Shown: positions 23,782-59,163, numbered from the stretch's first letter. The stretch: 64,000 nt of DNA from Burkholderiales bacterium (GCA_035602335.1 DATNMK010000084.1:42318-106317); one strand, 5' to 3'. Notes: generated from the letters alone by a model not told the origin. Numbers and translations: made by a program.

Positions 23782-23935
23782 GAAGCCTCCCTTCTGGTAG
23801 TCGCCATGCTACGGATGCATGGTCTCAGCCGGCAAAACCCGGCGACAGGCGGCTGGAATCGCCGACTGGCGGCGCGGAGCAGCGCAACATACGTGATGTA
23901 CTTCACGACCCGCCGGGTTGCGGGAGGGCGTGTCG

Positions 23936-23941
23936 TATAAT
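23936..23941 (+). promoter_or_regulatory. Perfect TATAAT -10 hexamer upstream of the split tRNA-Thr (ancestral tRNA promoter?)
   Basis: gtcgTATAATgcg lies 25 nt upstream of the tRNA 5' end at 23966. No good -35 was found. Confidence 0.35.
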
Positions 23942-23965
23942 GCGCGGCTCGCGGGGCACCGGACC

Positions 23966-24005
23966 GCTGGTGTAGCTCAGCTGGTAGAGCAACTGATTCG
24001 TAATC
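23966..24005 (+). pseudogene. 5' half of a disrupted tRNA-Thr(CGU) gene
   Basis: GCTGGTG-TA-GCTC-AGCTGGTA-GAGC-A-ACTGA-TTCGTAA-TC, then unrelated sequence (CGCAGTCAACCCCCC). Confidence 0.85.
23995..24005 (+). repeat. Left copy of the 11-bp direct repeat GATTCGTAATC (island junction)
   Basis: Identical 11-mer at 28856-28866. Spans the anticodon loop of the split tRNA. Confidence 0.8.
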
Positions 24006-24045
24006 CGCAGTCAACCCCCCGTGCTTTTCAGCCAGTCCAACGAGG

Positions 24046-24074
24046 TTGCAGCGTTCGGCGGTGCGGCGGAAAAT
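24046..24074 (+). promoter_or_regulatory. Candidate sigma70 promoter for the island-borne tRNA-Thr
   Basis: TTGCAG-17 nt-GAAAAT. The -10 ends 12 nt before the tRNA 5' end at 24087. Confidence 0.35.
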
Positions 24075-24086
24075 CCCTTCGGAATT

Positions 24087-24162
24087 GCTGGCGTAGCTCA
24101 GTTGGTAGAGCAGTCGCTTCGTAAGCGTCAGGTCGCGTGTTCGAGTCACGCCGCCAGCACCA
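24087..24162 (+). tRNA. tRNA-Thr (anticodon CGU), complete, 76 nt with encoded CCA
   Basis: GCTGGCG-TA-GCTC-AGTTGGTA-GAGC-A-GTCGC-TTCGTAA-GCGTC-AGGTC-GCGTG-TTCGAGT-CACGC-CGCCAGC-ACCA. One U28-U42 mismatch in the anticodon stem. Confidence 0.9.
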
Positions 24163-24172
24163 AAACCGAACG

Positions 24173-24194
24173 TAGGTAACAGCCTAGGTAACAG
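24173..24194 (+). repeat. Tandem TAGGTAACAG-cc-TAGGTAACAG motif just inside the left island end
   Basis: Two exact 10-mers separated by 2 nt. A 9/10 copy (TAGGTAGCAG) lies 10 nt inside the right junction. Confidence 0.5.
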
Positions 24195-24230
24195 ATCAAA
24201 TTGAAGGCGCTCGCGGTACAGCGTCCGTCG

Positions 24231-25187
24231 TCAGCGCTTTATTGGGCCTCGTCCTAGGGCAGCCTCAATTCGGTTCTGGAGTCGCTTCGCCAGGTCGGCG
24301 TATTCGCCCGGTTTCCAGATAAGGAAGTTGTATTGCCGGGTGTCGAAGTGAACGTCTTTTAGCTGATCCTCGCGACACAGCCAGATCACGCGCAGGCCAA
24401 GGCCGAGCGCAAAGCCGGCTTCGAAGTACACGCCTCCGCGTTGCCCGGTGAAATCTGCGACCACGAACCGGCTGCGCCGGATCATGGCCACGATCTCATC
24501 GTCAATACGATTGACATGCTCATGTTGATCGATCCGCTTCGGCTCGTATCCTGCGGCGTGGATTGCCGGCTCGATTGCGTCAGTCCATAGCGGCCTCACG
24601 TCATCGGCAAACCACATCGCACAAAAGCCGATCGGGCTTTCGGGATTTCCTTCGCGCAATTCCTCGAGGAGCTCATGGCCGCGGGGGGTGACGCGACCGC
24701 CTATTAGGAAGGCCCCTCCACTAATAGCGGCACTGGTTTGGCCGTCAATTGCACCAATGGCGCCGAGTAAATAGTCGATCAAGAGATACTGGACTTCGTT
24801 TATAGACTCTGACCACGTTACGGCAATCCAGCCGGGGTCTGTTGTACCCACGTCTGGAAAGTGAAATTCGAATGTTTCGCCAGCCCTAGGATGTTGGCGC
24901 GCAAGCTCCTGGAGCAGCTTTGTAGCCCGCTCTGCAACGGGCGGGGTGCGCAGTTGCCACAACCTTTCTAGGTCGCGTGAATCTAGTTTGATGCCTTGGT
25001 TTTCTCGAATCCAAGCGCTGACGTTGGCGATGGCTCGAGGGTCAGCATTCGTAGCCTTAGCAACTGCCCCTGCTGTCCCGGTGAGACTGAATTTTCCGCA
25101 ACGGCGACAGGTGTAGGCCGTTGTATCTGGATGATCCGTGGATTGCATTCCATCGAATCCGCAAATAGGGCATGACAGGTCACTCAT
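24231..25187 (-). CDS. Island gene A: Zn-ribbon + central domain + C-terminal TIR/nucleoside-2-deoxyribosyltransferase-like domain (candidate effector)
   Basis: N-terminus CPICGFDG...CRRCG. C-terminus IGFCAMWFADDVRPLWTDAIEPAIHAAGYEPKRIDQ...RSRFVVADFTGQRGGVYFEAGFALGLGLRVIWL, the fviADlT..nVyyElGyA..lGk.vi pattern of the TIR/NDT Rossmannoid clan with a conserved Glu. Confidence 0.6.
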   Translation of the reverse strand: MSDLSCPICGFDGMQSTDHPDTTAYTCRRCGKFSLTGTAGAVAKATNADPRAIANVSAWIRENQGIKLDSRDLERLWQLRTPPVAERATKLLQELARQHPRAGETFEFHFPDVGTTDPGWIAVTWSESINEVQYLLIDYLLGAIGAIDGQTSAAISGGAFLIGGRVTPRGHELLEELREGNPESPIGFCAMWFADDVRPLWTDAIEPAIHAAGYEPKRIDQHEHVNRIDDEIVAMIRRSRFVVADFTGQRGGVYFEAGFALGLGLRVIWLCREDQLKDVHFDTRQYNFLIWKPGEYADLAKRLQNRIEAALGRGPIKR

Positions 25188-25237
25188 ACTGCGCAGCCGC
25201 TTTCATAGCCCACCATCCCTCCATCTTTGCTGTCTCA

Positions 25238-25726
25238 TCATTCCATGTAAGTAGCTACAAAAGCCTTGTATTCGTCCTCTGACTTACAAATGCGCTCATT
25301 CGCGGACGAGGGAGTCAGCTTGCAAGTTATCGGCGGTACCTCCCAGTATTTCTTAACCTTGTCCGCTATCCACATATATTCGGCGTACCCCCTCTGCTCG
25401 AACGCATCGAATAGGTACTTGGTGTTGGCAAGCGTGCCGGTGCCCATATCGGTGGTTTCCACAGTCATAAAGCATTTGTTCTGTTTCGCGCTGTAGTGAC
25501 TTTGGAGTGACGCGAAGATCTTGCTTCTCGGATCATTCAGCTTGTAACCCAACTGGCCAAATATCTTCTCTGCCTGTAGCGCACACTTTTGCTGCTGTTC
25601 TAGCCCCTCACGGGCAGCCTTGTCGTTTAGTTTCGAAGTTAGTTCGGCAATCTCACTACGCTGTGCATTCAGAAACCACGAAAGAACCAAGACGATCGCC
25701 GCCAAGATAGCAATAGAAGCCTTCAT
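25238..25726 (-). CDS. Island gene B: N-terminally anchored exported protein with coiled-coil and 4 Cys, unknown function
   Basis: MKASIAILAAIVLVLSWFLNAQ TM/signal anchor. Strong SD GGGGGGAGGGG. Start trimmed from the track ORF to ATG 25726. Confidence 0.55.
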   Translation of the reverse strand: MKASIAILAAIVLVLSWFLNAQRSEIAELTSKLNDKAAREGLEQQQKCALQAEKIFGQLGYKLNDPRSKIFASLQSHYSAKQNKCFMTVETTDMGTGTLANTKYLFDAFEQRGYAEYMWIADKVKKYWEVPPITCKLTPSSANERICKSEDEYKAFVATYME

Positions 25727-25883
25727 GCCCCTCCCCCCTTTTTCTACTGCCTTCGGCGCCATTCCTAAGGCGCCACCGGCTTCGGATCCGCCCATAGCCC
25801 GCGCACCTGCGGCCGTCGATATCGACTGCAATACTGATCCGCCGACGCCCCGACTCCTCCAAAGGGCCTCTCCTGTTTCGAAT

Positions 25884-26153
25884 TCACTTCCCTAGCATGA
25901 CTCCCAAGACTATAAAAATGATGAACCAGGCGAACAGCGAAAAGATTGCACCGCCGAAACTTTGTCCCGTAGAGCAATCCATTTCAAAAAACGTGGCGAT
26001 GATTGGGATCTCTTGTAGCGTCCCGACTATCAGGTTGGCGGGTAAGAGCCAAATTTGTTTGGCTATTAGGAATACGTCGGAGATAGTAAAAACCCCATCT
26101 CCATTCATATCGGCCGCGAAGTGGAACCGGCGGCAATACTCGTACATTGGCAT
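25884..26153 (-). CDS. Island gene C: 89-aa membrane protein with a canonical EF-hand Ca2+-binding loop
   Basis: DMNGDGVFTISD fits the DxNxDGxxTxxD pattern. It is followed by two hydrophobic segments (VFLIAKQIWLLPANLIVGTL and GGAIFSLFAWFIIFIVLGVMLG). GGGGAGA SD 6 nt upstream. Confidence 0.6.
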   Translation of the reverse strand: MPMYEYCRRFHFAADMNGDGVFTISDVFLIAKQIWLLPANLIVGTLQEIPIIATFFEMDCSTGQSFGGAIFSLFAWFIIFIVLGVMLGK

Positions 26154-26222
26154 GTAAGTCTCCCCGCATAAACGCTACGCCGCGAAACCGCTTCGTGCCC
26201 TTAGATCACTCGTTGCCCACTG

Positions 26223-26681
26223 CTACAACTTGAACCCTTCAGCACGCAGAACCTCAACGAATGATGCAACACGAATGCCGCGGGCCCGGCAAACGTTCGG
26301 AATCTTTGGGGTCTTCGCCTTGCCCATCGTTTCGTACGTGACAACGGGAACACCGCTGATCTCGGCGAGCGCGACAACAAATGGATCGGCCCCTGATCTA
26401 GTCGACTTTGGATCGATGAAACCAGCGTGCGCAATGATTATGTCCTTCGACTTCTGTAACAGCGCGCGGTCAGTGTCGACAAAGAAGTTGTCCAACGCCT
26501 TTGCCCACTTGCACAGGTTGTCACTCTGCCGTTCAAGCTCAATGCGAACATCGACTGGCGCCGCTATCGTGCCGCTTTCCGCCAACTCCTTTAGTTTGTC
26601 CCAAAGCGGTTCGAACATCTCTGGTGGATAGTGCCGGACCCAAGGTTCGATTAGCGCGCTGGTGTCAAAGCACCATCTCAC
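26223..26681 (-). CDS. Island gene D: DUF4411-family PIN-like nuclease-fold protein
   Basis: (GTG) RWCFDTSALIEPWVRHYPPEMFEPLWDKL...GADPFVVALAE...VVTYE...KIPNVCRARGIRV matches my recollection of the DUF4411 consensus. GGGAGG SD. GTGA overlap with gene E. Confidence 0.8.
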   Translation of the reverse strand: MRWCFDTSALIEPWVRHYPPEMFEPLWDKLKELAESGTIAAPVDVRIELERQSDNLCKWAKALDNFFVDTDRALLQKSKDIIIAHAGFIDPKSTRSGADPFVVALAEISGVPVVTYETMGKAKTPKIPNVCRARGIRVASFVEVLRAEGFKL

Positions 26682-27895
26682 GCCGCCTCCCGGTGCTTGA
26701 GCACGTCGACGATCTTGGGTAAATGGTCGATCTTCGTCCCTAGGATGCGCGACAACTCAGAACCGGTGATAACGGCCGAGTCATACGCATCAACGACAAG
26801 CCTAGTAAGAAACCGACCGTTCGCCAGGACGACGCGGCGAGGGAAACTTGCGAAGCCGGCGCTAGAGTCCCCTTCGTCGCCAGCGTGTTCCCGCCTATAT
26901 TCCTCCCGCATCCGCTGGTAGAACGCCTGCGAAGTTTTTCCGGCCATGAGTAGACGCCGAAGGATGGCCTCGCGGCTCGCCCAAAATGTTCTTCGCAGCG
27001 TCGCCAAGGTATCGGCACCCCATTCAGCAGCGCGAGCGTTTGCAACAGCAGGATGTTGCAGCAAATGATCGAAAGGAAGCAGGATCGCGCCAGCGACGTG
27101 ATTGCAATAGGTTTCGATTGACTGTTCCCTGTCACCGCGCGGTGCCTCGTCTCGCACGTCGCATAGGCTGCTTTCGGCGCGAGCAAGGTGCGCGAGTTCG
27201 TGCAACAGAGTGAATACCCTTCCAAGGGGCCGATCAGTGCTGTTTAGGATGACGACCGGCAGTGGGAAGAGTGCGAGCGAGCACCCGCGCATTTCGCTAA
27301 CTTCGACGCCACTAATCTGCATGACGAGGACGCCAAGCGACTCGACGGCGGCTTTCCATGCGTTCAAAGCGTCATAGTCGTTCGCCCATGCTCGGCGATC
27401 GTTCATCGTAATGCCGAGTTTTTGTGTCAGATGCTCGGCCATTGGTTCGGGCTGAAGCATTCCAGCCAACCCAAGGTCAAAGGCGGGGGGTTCCTCCTCC
27501 AACTGCGCGTAGATACCGAGCGCGGCGTCCCGTTTGGCTTCAGCCTCGCGGATACCGTTCGCAAGGTCACTACTCACGAGATGTTCCGTACTGAGTTCAA
27601 ACCTGCGGAAGTCGGCGGGTTGTTCCGTAGCAGCCGGTGGCGCTTCGAGGAAGAACACACCGATAGAGCGCTTGTAGATTTTCGCGAGCTGGCGCAACTG
27701 CGCCAGTGCAGGAACCTGCTCGCCGGCCTCCCAAGCACGGATTCTCGCCTCTGGTTTGTTCATTTTCTTGGCAGCGGCAGGCACGTCCAATCGCGACGTT
27801 TCCCGCGCCCATTTCAGCAGGTCGCGGCTAACCAAACCATCGAGCGATGGGCCCGCCATAGGATGAGCAGATAACCGTCTAAAGCGCCGTTTCAT
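26678..27895 (-). CDS. Island gene E: XRE-family HTH fused to ImmA/IrrE (M78, DUF955) Zn-metalloprotease
   Basis: HTH region LLKWARETSRLDVPAAAKKMNKPEARIRAWEAGEQVPALAQLRQLAKIY. HEXXH motif in FTLLHELAHLA. Alternative ATG at 27859. Confidence 0.85.
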   Translation of the reverse strand: MKRRFRRLSAHPMAGPSLDGLVSRDLLKWARETSRLDVPAAAKKMNKPEARIRAWEAGEQVPALAQLRQLAKIYKRSIGVFFLEAPPAATEQPADFRRFELSTEHLVSSDLANGIREAEAKRDAALGIYAQLEEEPPAFDLGLAGMLQPEPMAEHLTQKLGITMNDRRAWANDYDALNAWKAAVESLGVLVMQISGVEVSEMRGCSLALFPLPVVILNSTDRPLGRVFTLLHELAHLARAESSLCDVRDEAPRGDREQSIETYCNHVAGAILLPFDHLLQHPAVANARAAEWGADTLATLRRTFWASREAILRRLLMAGKTSQAFYQRMREEYRREHAGDEGDSSAGFASFPRRVVLANGRFLTRLVVDAYDSAVITGSELSRILGTKIDHLPKIVDVLKHREAA

Positions 27896-27939
27896 TGAAG
27901 GCTACACCATTTCCCGACCCGCCCGTTTCGCGCGGCCGA

Positions 27940-27969
27940 TGGACAATTCGCAACTATGCGCGGCATACT
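27940..27969 (+). promoter_or_regulatory. Candidate sigma70 promoter of gene F
   Basis: TGGACA-18 nt-CATACT. The -10 is the left arm of the SOS box. The predicted TSS is only about 8 nt before the ATG, giving a near-leaderless transcript with no SD. Confidence 0.4.
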
Positions 27970-27985
27970 GTTCAGATATACAGTA
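27966..27985. promoter_or_regulatory. LexA (SOS) box, CTGT-N8-ACAG type
   Basis: TACTGTTCAGATATACAGTA versus the E. coli-type consensus TACTGTATATATATACAGTA: both 6-nt arms are perfect, 17/20 overall. Part of the 8+8 inverted repeat CATACTGT..ACAGTATG, which ends in the gene F ATG. Confidence 0.7.
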
Positions 27986-28215
27986 TGACAAATTTAATGA
28001 TTCCTTTCGAGTGCCCGATATGCGGCTCGGACGGCTTTACCCAAGTTTCAGTTAGGGGGCGCGACGGCCGGACACGACTGACGCAAGCCTATGAATGCCG
28101 CGGCTGCAGCACCATGTTCCGCGAGCGCGAACGCTTCACTAAGCACCGCCCGCAGGTCATGGGCGCGGACGGCGTAGATTTGAAGCCGACGCTCGATAAG
28201 AAGTCCGCAAGGTAG
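27985..28215 (+). CDS. Island gene F: 76-aa Zn-ribbon protein, putatively SOS-regulated
   Basis: MTNLMIPFECPICGSDGFTQVSVRGRDGRTRLTQAYECRGCSTMF... The CxxC...CxxC ribbon is similar to the N-terminus of gene A. Start chosen at the ATG inside the SOS box. Confidence 0.55.
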   Translation: MTNLMIPFECPICGSDGFTQVSVRGRDGRTRLTQAYECRGCSTMFRERERFTKHRPQVMGADGVDLKPTLDKKSAR

Positions 28216-28297
28216 TTCGTGTTCGATACCACACAGACAATCCAGTCGAATGCTGTTACTTGGTACGCTGCCCGTACGACTTATTCGAAAGCAGACA

Positions 28298-28672
28298 ATG
28301 AGAAAGTCGATCGCCTGGGCGGCTATCGTCGCCCTTCTCGCCGGCTGTGTCACAACGGCGAAATTCGAAGACAAGCTCAACAGTTGGGTAGGACACAGCG
28401 AAGACGACTTGGTCCGATCGTGGGGGCCGCCTTCTGGCGTTTATGAAACCGCGAACAGCAAGTACCTAACGTACGCGCGTTCTGCTCAGGGCTACGTGCC
28501 AGGCGTTGCGCCTAGTTACCAAAGCTACGCAGTAGGCAACACGGTATATACGCGGCCTGTTGGAGGTTCTCCCGGGTTTGCGTATTCACAGCAGTGTAAT
28601 GCGACCTTTGAGCTTGTCGGTGGAGTAATTCGGTCATGGAGATGGGAAGGCAACGCGTGCAGATCAAACTAG
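28298..28672 (+). CDS. Island gene G: lipoprotein of unknown function
   Basis: MRKSIAWAAIVALLAG|C lipobox signal. 124 aa. Confidence 0.7.
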   Translation: MRKSIAWAAIVALLAGCVTTAKFEDKLNSWVGHSEDDLVRSWGPPSGVYETANSKYLTYARSAQGYVPGVAPSYQSYAVGNTVYTRPVGGSPGFAYSQQCNATFELVGGVIRSWRWEGNACRSN

Positions 28673-28835
28673 CTCTGCTCCCGCATGCCTAGTTCTCGAA
28701 AATATCTATTGGCTCGGCCGCGCTCGGTTCAATAACCGTAGCATCAATCACGCGCATCTCGCGGGCGGCGCGCATGTTCGCTTCGGCCAGTGCATTGAAC
28801 CGCAAAGGGAAGCCGAATGTTCGCCTGTGATACCT

Positions 28836-28845
28836 TAGGTAGCAG
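28836..28845 (+). repeat. TAGGTAGCAG, a 9/10 copy of the left-end motif near the right island junction
   Basis: Compared by eye with 24173-24194. Confidence 0.35.
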
Positions 28846-28855
28846 CAGGGTAAGA

Positions 28856-28866
28856 GATTCGTAATC
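28856..28866 (+). repeat. Right copy of the 11-bp direct repeat GATTCGTAATC
   Basis: Identical to 23995-24005. Confidence 0.8.
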
Positions 28867-28902
28867 AGTAGGTCGCCCGTTCGAGTCGGGCCACCAGCAC
28901 CA
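28856..28902 (+). pseudogene. 3' half of the disrupted tRNA-Thr(CGU) gene
   Basis: (GA)TTCGTAA-TCAGT-AGGTC-GCCCG-TTCGAGT-CGGGC-CACCAGC-ACCA. The acceptor and anticodon-stem strands are exact complements of the 5' half at 23966. Confidence 0.85.
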
Positions 28903-28963
28903 TCAATTACGAGGCTGCGCTCCTCGAGCCAAGCGACGCAGCTAAGGAAAACTCAGGGGCGTA

Positions 28964-29305
28964 TCAGCTGCAGCCGCGAAGCTGCTCGCGCAAGGCTTCA
29001 AGCCGCTGCTGACGAACTTCATCGTTCGCGCCGGCATCGCGACGGCTGGGGGTTAAGCGGGAATATTCCTGCATGTCCCGCGCGCACTGGCGTTGGAGCT
29101 CCTGCGTAGTCCTCGCTGCCGCGCGAGGTGATGCGGATTCCATTGGCGCCGCGCCGCCGCGCTGGATTTTGATTATTTCGCTCTTGCAGTTTGGTAGCGG
29201 CTTGTCCGAATAGTGCGTCACGCCGCGCTGATCCACGCACTTATAAGTTTGAGCGTACGCCGGAGCGCAAATGACAAGGGCGACGATTAGGGCGGTTTGT
29301 TTCAT
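28964..29305 (-). CDS. DUF4124-domain periplasmic protein
   Basis: MKQTALIVALVICAPAYAQTYKCVDQRGVTHYSDKPLP. Start trimmed to 29305. Confidence 0.7.
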   Translation of the reverse strand: MKQTALIVALVICAPAYAQTYKCVDQRGVTHYSDKPLPNCKSEIIKIQRGGAAPMESASPRAAARTTQELQRQCARDMQEYSRLTPSRRDAGANDEVRQQRLEALREQLRGCS

Positions 29306-29416
29306 GGCTTGTTCGGTACAGTTGGCGATTGTACTCTCAGTCGGTAAGGGCGCAGATGCGTGCACACGCGCACTAGTCGGCGTTAATTGATCTAGACTTG
29401 CCGACATCGGACTTCG

Positions 29417-59088: not shown

Positions 59089-59163
59089 GAAAATCGGGGT
59101 CAGAGCCCGATTTCCGGCACCTCCGCTCCCGCTATGGGAAATCGGGCTCTGACCCCGATTTTC
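59089..59163. repeat. REP-like perfect 27-bp inverted repeat (hairpin, 21-nt loop) between convergent genes; likely bidirectional terminator
   Basis: GAAAATCGGGGTCAGAGCCCGATTTCC (59089-59115) and its exact reverse complement at 59137-59163. Confidence 0.8.

Follow-up and report, generated by a model that had tools for sequence, protein, structure and literature searches.

Background

In tRNA-dependent lysogeny, which was defined and tested experimentally in mycobacteriophages (Guerrero-Bustamante & Hatfull, mBio 2024; PMC10865867), a phage integrates within a host tRNA gene by way of a common core of 8-17 bp, the tRNA gene is not reconstructed, and a phage-encoded tRNA of the same isotype is required for the integration to be viable. 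The phages concerned are actinobacteriophages (Fionnbharth/K4, Cluster L, Cain, Gaia, BrutonGaster and others), for which related pairs of integrases, one canonical and one tRNA-dependent, were described on a single attB; how common this mode of lysogeny is outside the Actinobacteria is a question that the authors themselves asked (PMC10865867). Rhizobium phages of the vTRX32-1 group have a 12-bp core in a tRNA-Leu gene and carry a tRNA that lacks the core motif, for which two roles were proposed, namely substitution for the interrupted gene and protection against super-integration (Ford et al. 2021; PMC8631192). The substitution of host tRNA genes by foreign-type ones has been discussed for phage-related sequences of S. 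meliloti (PMC11476347).

The canonical tRNA-targeting islands and prophages are those covered by the sublocation classes of Williams (2002) and by Islander (PMC4383910). In these, the attP carries the 3' part of the tRNA gene, so that integration restores the target and displaces a 3' fragment. Cis-mobilisable elements (CIMEs) and integrase-less satellites are reported from Streptococcus thermophilus (Pavlovic et al. 2004; Bellanger et al. 2011); CIMEs are not known to carry a replacement for the gene that they split.

Here a 64-kb stretch of Burkholderiales DNA (termed the window) is analysed, in which a host gene for tRNA-Thr(CGU) is split in its anticodon loop by a 4.86-kb island of low GC content (positions 24006-28855). 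The island is interpreted, with a probability of roughly 0.78, as derived from a family of temperate phages with tRNA-dependent lysogeny, its flanking att sites being kept and its integrase lacking. An initial annotation of this DNA had proposed that the island supplies a replacement for the tRNA gene that it destroys; this idea is not new, as it amounts to tRNA-dependent lysogeny (PMC10865867), and because the core idea has been published already the finding sharpens an existing picture and does not open a new one.

Results and discussion

The split gene and the ends of the island

The features of the locus are listed in Table 1. GC content is 52-57% across 24-29 kb, as compared with 63-70% in both flanks. 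The two halves of the split host gene can still be paired with each other, both in the acceptor stem (GCTGGTG/CACCAGC) and in the anticodon stem (ACTGA/TCAGT); by itself the 5' part scores 22.6 bits against the Rfam tRNA model, which is under the threshold of 29, and ARAGORN calls no tRNA in the attR fragment. The core is present in the window in two copies only, one per island end. Since end-to-end identity is confined to these 11 bp, the target tRNA is not regenerated and both of its halves are orphaned.

Table 1. Coordinates, within the window, of the split tRNA gene, the att sites and the genes of the island
Feature	Position	Strand	Remarks
-10 box (TATAAT) of the host tRNA promoter	23936..23941	+	read from the sequence; since the insertion it precedes the 5' remnant, the leader and the island tRNA
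Orphaned 5' part (positions 1-40) of host tRNA-Thr(CGU), attL side	23966..24005	+	matches the 5' part of the intact L004 gene exactly
Left 11-bp common core GATTCGTAATC	23995..24005	+	anticodon loop TTCGTAA with 2 bp of the stem to either side
81-nt leader, from core to island tRNA	24006..24086	+	holds TTGCAG (24046-24051) and GAAAAT (24069-24074)
Complete island tRNA-Thr(CGU), replacement gene	24087..24162	+	ARAGORN; Rfam tRNA 68.1 bits (threshold 29)
Two tandem TAGGTAACAG repeats, candidate arm-type integrase-binding sites	24173..24194	+	
318-aa protein with N-terminal zinc ribbon and C-terminal TIR-like/nucleoside-deoxyribosyltransferase-like domain	24231..25187	-	
Hypothetical membrane-anchored protein	25238..25831	-	called as 162-185 aa in other assemblies
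89-aa hypothetical membrane protein	25884..26153	-	no family match
DUF4411 (PIN-like) protein, probable toxin partner of the next gene	26223..26681	-	Pfam PF14367 E = 1.2e-33; phrog_11126
HTH and ImmA/IrrE metallopeptidase protein, RmrA-like	26678..27895	-	Pfam Peptidase_M78 and HTH
Small zinc-ribbon protein	27895..28215	+	weak Pfam and PHROG matches only
Lipoprotein-like protein	28250..28672	+	LAGC lipobox; phrog_3716 E = 6e-12
TAGGTAGCAG, candidate arm-type site	28836..28845	+	10 nt from the right core
Right 11-bp common core GATTCGTAATC, attR side	28856..28866	+	
Orphaned 3' part of host tRNA-Thr(CGU), from anticodon loop to CCA	28856..28902	+	same as in L004

The motif TAGGTARCAG has three matches in the 64 kb, all of them at the island ends. 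This count is not significant by itself, being reached in 13 of 100 shuffles, and the repeats therefore remain candidate arm-type sites only; the attP junction predicted for the island reads ...GGGTAAGAGATTCGTAATCCGCAGTCAACC... Insertion of a transposon or IS element was considered and rejected, for the island has no transposase domain and its ends no terminal inverted repeats, and the core also occurs in phage attP sites beside integrases.

The replacement tRNA and its possible promoters

The island's tRNA-Thr(cgt) is the only tRNA that ARAGORN calls in the window, and the Rfam score agrees with the initial annotation that the island holds a complete and independent tRNA-Thr(CGU) in replacement of the gene that it splits. 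Of its 76 positions, 15 are not those of the host gene, the changes within stems being compensatory except for U28·U42, and it is therefore, as had been claimed, no duplicate of the split gene; its anticodon stem is GTCGC/GCGTC (rather than ACTGA/TCAGT), and its cloverleaf energy of -31.2 kcal/mol is as good as that of the host gene (-30.1 kcal/mol) or better. The tRNA starts inside the left junction, as annotated, although the distance is 81 nt rather than 82.

The U28-U42 mismatch, to which the annotation had drawn attention by comparison with the perfect stem of the host copy, is present but does not mark the island copy as inferior. A genome scan with the anticodon arm of the island tRNA yielded eight loci in Burkholderiales metagenome-assembled genomes (MAGs), and the arm with U28·U42 is found in all eight of them, so that the mismatch is a trait of the lineage and not a defect. 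At two of these loci (L009, 2738-2812, and L011, 6958-7032) the island-type tRNA is native and is identical to that of the island except for the final A of CCA.

As had been stated, the orphaned host promoter is located immediately upstream of the island tRNA, and the TATAAT is confirmed; a TATAAT or TACAAT box occurs in the same relative place upstream of the tRNA in all of the syntenic loci L007-L014. For the additional promoter that had been proposed within the leader (TTGCAG-17-GAAAAT), positions and spacer hold, but it is weak by consensus (7 of 12 positions) and promoter scans of 23800-24300 and 28600-29000 returned nothing that passed the criteria; hence a promoter of the island tRNA's own stays only plausible. 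Its two hexamers are nevertheless conserved in the leader of L010 (a Burkholderiales locus described below), which is homologous to that of the window (alignment score 49, as against a shuffle maximum of 22) and in which CGAGGTTGCAGCG and GAAAATC are kept. The core-adjacent motif TCCNNAGTCA of the window leader is common to the phages L006 and L054.

Empty and occupied alleles

Look-up of the flanking response regulator retrieved an empty site, L004 (JGI 3300001593), in which the tRNA-Thr(CGU) gene is uninterrupted and whose flanks are 100% identical to those of the window over 1,024 bp. This identity is not trivial, given that the flank of L005, from another sample, differs at 9 of 981 nt (0.9%). 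The occupied junction recurs unchanged in four other independent assemblies (L001, L002, L050 and L051), and the island is 100% identical in at least four assemblies; one of the occupied loci, L051, comes from the same sample as the empty L004, with no SNP between them in 1 kb of flank. The scaffold L048 stops exactly at the core, and the contigs of L001 and L002 start inside the core or at its end; such breaks are consistent with the presence of both alleles in those samples, and they could hide junctions of this kind in MAGs. Among IMG/VR viral contigs, neither a circular attP junction nor an attL motif of the window or L010 type was found.

Because of the empty site and the identical junctions in other assemblies, the insertion is real and no assembly artefact, and it is recent. 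The presence of two tRNA-like sequences 121 nt apart could otherwise be read as a local tandem duplication, or as an assembly chimera, but the 15 differences in 76 with their compensatory stem changes, the location of the missing 3' half 4.86 kb away, the existence of L004 and the agreement of junctions across five assemblies refute this reading and leave it a negligible probability.

Phage relatives and their integrases

IMG/VR, when scanned with the island tRNA for exact matches, gave one viral contig of 44 kb (L006), whose tRNA is identical to that of the island at 76 of 76 positions. The order in L006 is a promoter-like site (TTGTCC-18-TATACT, 9 of 12 consensus positions), the core GATTCGTAATC, a 59-nt leader, the tRNA and, directly after it, a convergent tyrosine integrase gene (PF00589 1.6e-16; phrog_1 1e-43); a lysis gene of spanin-like type is found on the other side. 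The same core is found in the attP of L056 as well; in L006 it stands without flanking tRNA halves and is thus an attP. Beyond tRNA and core, no DNA or protein similarity between the island and L006 was detected, and the arm repeats differ (TAGGTARCAG for the island's candidates, GGTGCA for L006).

Three further phages (L052/53, L054 and L056), with integrases that are 73-78% identical to that of L006, have the layout GGTGCA arm repeats, core TGATTCGTAA(TC), leader of 57-62 nt, full tRNA-Thr(CGU) and int. The tRNAs of the L006 group vary from phage to phage, yet none has the target's ACTGA/TCAGT anticodon stem. Judging by these relatives, the replacement arrangement noticed in the initial annotation is a designed feature of a phage family.

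A more distant relative, L061, has an integrase that is 48% identical and an attP of the canonical kind: the int-adjacent TTCGTAATCAGTAGGTCGCCCGTTCGAGTCGGGCCACCAGCACCA equals the host 3' half at 45 of 45 nt (28858-28902). It follows from this match that the host-type tRNA gene is the attB of the integrase family and that crossover takes place in the 7-nt anticodon loop. In the L006 group, the full tRNA stands where a canonical attP has the 3' half. Along with its canonical attP, L061 (3440-3560, 4415-4609) has a separate tRNA-Thr(CGU) and a tRNA-Tyr among lysis genes; it may represent an intermediate between canonical and tRNA-dependent integration.

Integrated copies elsewhere

The loci L009 and L011, which belong to two other Burkholderiales species, are syntenic with the window (pilin, TATAAT, tRNA, response regulator) and free of scars; the identity of their native tRNA with that of the phage would mean either that the phage captured it from such a lineage or that a phage copy replaced theirs. 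An attL architecture like that of the window occurs in other Burkholderiales MAGs or metagenomes (L010, L013 and L034): L010 and L013 have kept the host promoter and the 5' half seen in the window (…GATTCGTAAC), after which come a leader of 89-96 nt and a complete tRNA. L010 (1120-1320, minus strand) comprises pilin genes, promoter, host 5' half, leader, complete tRNA and a response-regulator gene that begins 7 nt past the CCA of the tRNA, from which it follows that the cargo has been lost and the replacement tRNA alone kept. Such a state would arise if a deletion had joined the two tRNAs at their similar 3' ends. L008 and L014 were considered as eroded scars and discarded, their leader similarity to the window being within that of shuffles. 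In the lineage of the window, a DUF4124 gene (28964-29407) lies between the tRNA locus and the response regulator; it is absent from L009, L010 and L011, where the regulator begins 7-14 nt after the tRNA.

A gapped pattern (core, 67-97 nt, D-arm) recovered the same architecture in 29 metagenome loci and in one more viral contig. Contigs with a replacement cassette come from gut, fermenter and other metagenomes (L019, L020, L022, L030-L033, L035, L037 and L043). In these, the 5' fragment extends as far as the T stem (…GGTCGCTG / ATTGTTGC) and is separated by a leader of 67 nt from a complete tRNA-Thr(CGU) whose T stem is different; next come a terminator-like hairpin and, in convergent orientation, the gene for a tyrosine integrase of 384-397 aa. 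The cassette design is the same, but crossover is in the T-loop region. In L016 and L018 (peat/soil), an attP-like core is followed by an element-type tRNA-Thr(CGU) (GCCGACG…) that is broken in its turn immediately after the anticodon loop (…CGATTCGTAAT / TTGCAAATCC); intact counterparts of this tRNA, with an integrase downstream, are found in L027, L029 and L036.

Some loci hold stacked 5' fragments (L033, L023, L024 and L040, the last with two 5' fragments before a complete tRNA), and among them some of the disrupted fragments are preceded by a leader of phage type (…aaagttcataa). Earlier replacement tRNAs have therefore been hit by later integrations, with serial overwriting as the result. 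As a tentative proposal, which we hold to be somewhat less probable than its negation, phage replacement tRNAs become the host's permanent tRNA-Thr(CGU) after decay of the prophage, and repeated overwriting changes the phages' own attB. The window island, L010 (with only 5' half, leader and tRNA) and the gut loci with stacked 5' fragments may be stages of this process.

Cargo of the island

The 318-aa protein matches a TIR effector of PADLOC (E = 1.4e-13) and phrog_16139 (E = 5e-37), with Pfam PF05014 below the cut-off; for the neighbouring membrane-anchored protein, Pfam, PADLOC and PHROG gave no family match. The protein with HTH and ImmA/IrrE domains matches RmrA of PADLOC (E = 3.6e-12) and phrog_2439 (E = 4e-56), and its gene overlaps that of the DUF4411 protein by 4 nt; in a comparison with RosmerTA-type pairs, the DUF4411 partner had no PADLOC match. 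An exact look-up of the 405-aa ImmA ORF gave no record, because gene callers pick a later start. With its TIR-like gene and its RmrA-like and DUF4411 genes, the cargo looks like anti-phage defence of the phage accessory type, as judged from these domain matches.

The island holds no integrase, excisionase, repressor module, transposase or phage structural gene. Remnants of an integrase were sought in the whole window by tblastn with four integrases (from L006, L032, L019 and L027), the best match having E = 0.5; the domain search and tblastn thus bear out the earlier description of the island as one without an integrase. In a distant blastn search of GenBank phages with the whole island, the tRNA alone matches; matches to Ralstonia phages were set aside as irrelevant, as they concern tRNA-Thr(TGT) in unverified prophage flanks. 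Elsewhere in the window and unrelated to the island, a perfect 27-nt inverted repeat (59089-59163; GAAAATCGGGGTCAGAGCCCGATTTCC / GGAAATCGGGCTCTGACCCCGATTTTC) has arms 21 nt apart, each of which is hairpin-like by itself.

Proposed mechanism

In the mechanism that is proposed here, a tyrosine integrase would have carried out recombination between an attP core and the host gene for tRNA-Thr(CGU), within the anticodon loop; the core GATTCGTAATC seems to mimic that loop together with two stem base pairs on each side. The element would bring with it a complete tRNA-Thr(CGU), placed between the attP core and the usual place of int and in the orientation of the target. Once integrated, the element's tRNA would lie 81 nt downstream of the host 5' half and would be transcribed from the host promoter, perhaps also from its own weak promoter, and it would take over the decoding of ACG. 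We infer that the island tRNA is expressed and charged and that the host needs it. In the free L006 phage, transcription of the tRNA would start from the promoter-like site beyond the core, and integration would put the host promoter in the place of this site. Because its anticodon stem differs from that of the target, the replacement tRNA would probably serve the same integrase poorly as an attB.

The window copy has neither an integrase nor any phage core gene, and what remains is accessory genes of defence type only; the link of the island to phages is suggested by the att-tRNA module and the PHROG-type cargo. Of the features of tRNA-dependent lysogeny, the window shows an attB in a tRNA gene (intact in L004), an 11-bp repeat and a tRNA-Thr(cgt) of the element's own; an element-encoded tyrosine integrase is present in L006, L052, L054 and L056 and absent from the whole window. 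For want of an integrase, the window copy is a derivative of such elements and not a complete member. Its integrase-less state is compatible both with prophage decay and with a satellite-like element mobilised in trans.

Alternative readings and possible dependence on the island tRNA

On the second of these accounts, the island is a compact satellite-like or cis-mobilisable element that never needed an integrase and that is moved in trans by the integrase of a helper phage which belongs to the same family and resides in the same host. In its favour, neither copy of the core has a mismatch, the cargo consists of closely packed ORFs that are all intact, and candidate arm repeats are kept at both ends; the complete identity of the island in at least four assemblies, the co-occurrence of occupied L051 and empty L004 in one sample (when another sample differs by 0.9%) and the end of L048 exactly at the core, as at a fork in the assembly graph, point the same way. 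However, the viral contigs contain no circular attP junction, no helper integrase with matching arm sites was found, coexisting alleles are equally well explained by two sub-strains, and L010 demonstrates that such insertions do decay. We therefore regard this account as unlikely, albeit the most credible of the alternatives; were it to apply, the island may be a defence-carrying hitchhiker, still moving in trans, that pays for its insertion with a tRNA. Far less probable is the suggestion that the tRNA serves mainly for escape from tRNA-cleaving defences or toxins, or for phage codon supplementation, and that the disruption of the neighbouring host gene is incidental. Phage tRNAs have been proposed to counter anticodon nucleases (PMC10865867, discussion), the island itself encodes a PIN-like DUF4411 protein, and L061 has a tRNA-Thr(CGU) despite a canonical attP; against this, the anticodon exactly matches that of the disrupted gene, the place of the tRNA (between core and int, co-oriented with the target) is fixed in four distinct phages and in all integrated copies, and ACG is rarer in island genes than in host genes.

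How strongly the host depends on the replacement bears on a further claim of the initial annotation, namely that the tRNA is an addiction module that stabilises the whole integrase-less island, which the host could then not lose. The host gene is destroyed, and among the Thr codons that host genes use, 43% are ACG (22 per 1000 codons) and 4% ACA, so that the load on the CGU isoacceptor is heavy and its loss should be costly. The wobble position of tRNA-Thr(UGU), when U34 is modified, may allow that isoacceptor to read ACG as well; the replacement could accordingly be beneficial rather than essential. A complete replacement tRNA is kept at every disrupted locus found, and lysogens of M. smegmatis need the phage tRNA to survive (PMC10865867). 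Yet selection would act on the tRNA only: precise att x att excision would regenerate the host tRNA gene, empty sites exist in the same population, and L010 retains the 5' half, the leader and the tRNA without cargo. What any selection would guard, given that excision restores the gene and that L010 kept its tRNA without cargo, is some ~160 bp and not the 4.6-kb cargo, which makes addiction-like stabilisation of the whole element doubtful, indeed improbable. The derivation from phages with tRNA-dependent lysogeny, as set out above, is the reading that is retained.

Implications and comparison with known systems

The window extends tRNA-dependent lysogeny, for which experimental proof comes from actinobacteriophages alone, to a tRNA-Thr(CGU) target and to uncultured Burkholderiales of soil, and it does so in the version of a compact cassette (core, leader of 60-90 nt, full tRNA and int) that puts the replacement behind the host tRNA promoter. 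The comparative loci suggest that the strategy is widespread in gut, fermenter, soil or peat metagenomes and that it leaves lasting marks on host tRNA genes, in the form of orphan 5' fragments and substituted tRNA sequences. Island finders that need a regenerated tRNA and a displaced 3' fragment will miss such elements or misdraw them. Cassettes of attP, tRNA and int could serve as integration vectors for Burkholderiales.

With the phages of PMC10865867 the locus shares a short core inside a host tRNA gene, failure to rebuild that gene and its substitution by a tRNA of the same anticodon, and the pairs Boilgate/Fionnbharth and Omega/Gaia described there correspond to L061 and L006. It differs from them in its host, a soil betaproteobacterium (Burkholderiales), and in its target, as tRNA-Thr(CGU) is not among their tRNA-dependent targets; moreover, the tRNA is here within 60-90 nt of the crossover, co-oriented and behind the host promoter, whereas that of Fionnbharth lies elsewhere and has a strong promoter of its own. 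The rhizobial cases likewise concern Proteobacteria, and there too it has been argued that the phage tRNA avoids serving as an attB (PMC8631192), but they involve Leu and other tRNAs, Autographiviridae-like phages, other integrases and full prophages.

As in canonical islands, an integrase of the tyrosine family targets the anticodon loop of a tRNA gene and int adjoins the tRNA end of the element, and L061 is a canonical member on the very attB that the host tRNA of the window provides; unlike canonical islands, the window orphans both the 5' and the 3' fragment and supplies a whole gene. Like the CIMEs, the island is flanked by att sites and has no recombinase of its own, and it is a candidate for movement by the integrase of a related element. 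Seen against these systems, the window island is a new proteobacterial and integrase-less example of tRNA-dependent lysogeny as already described.
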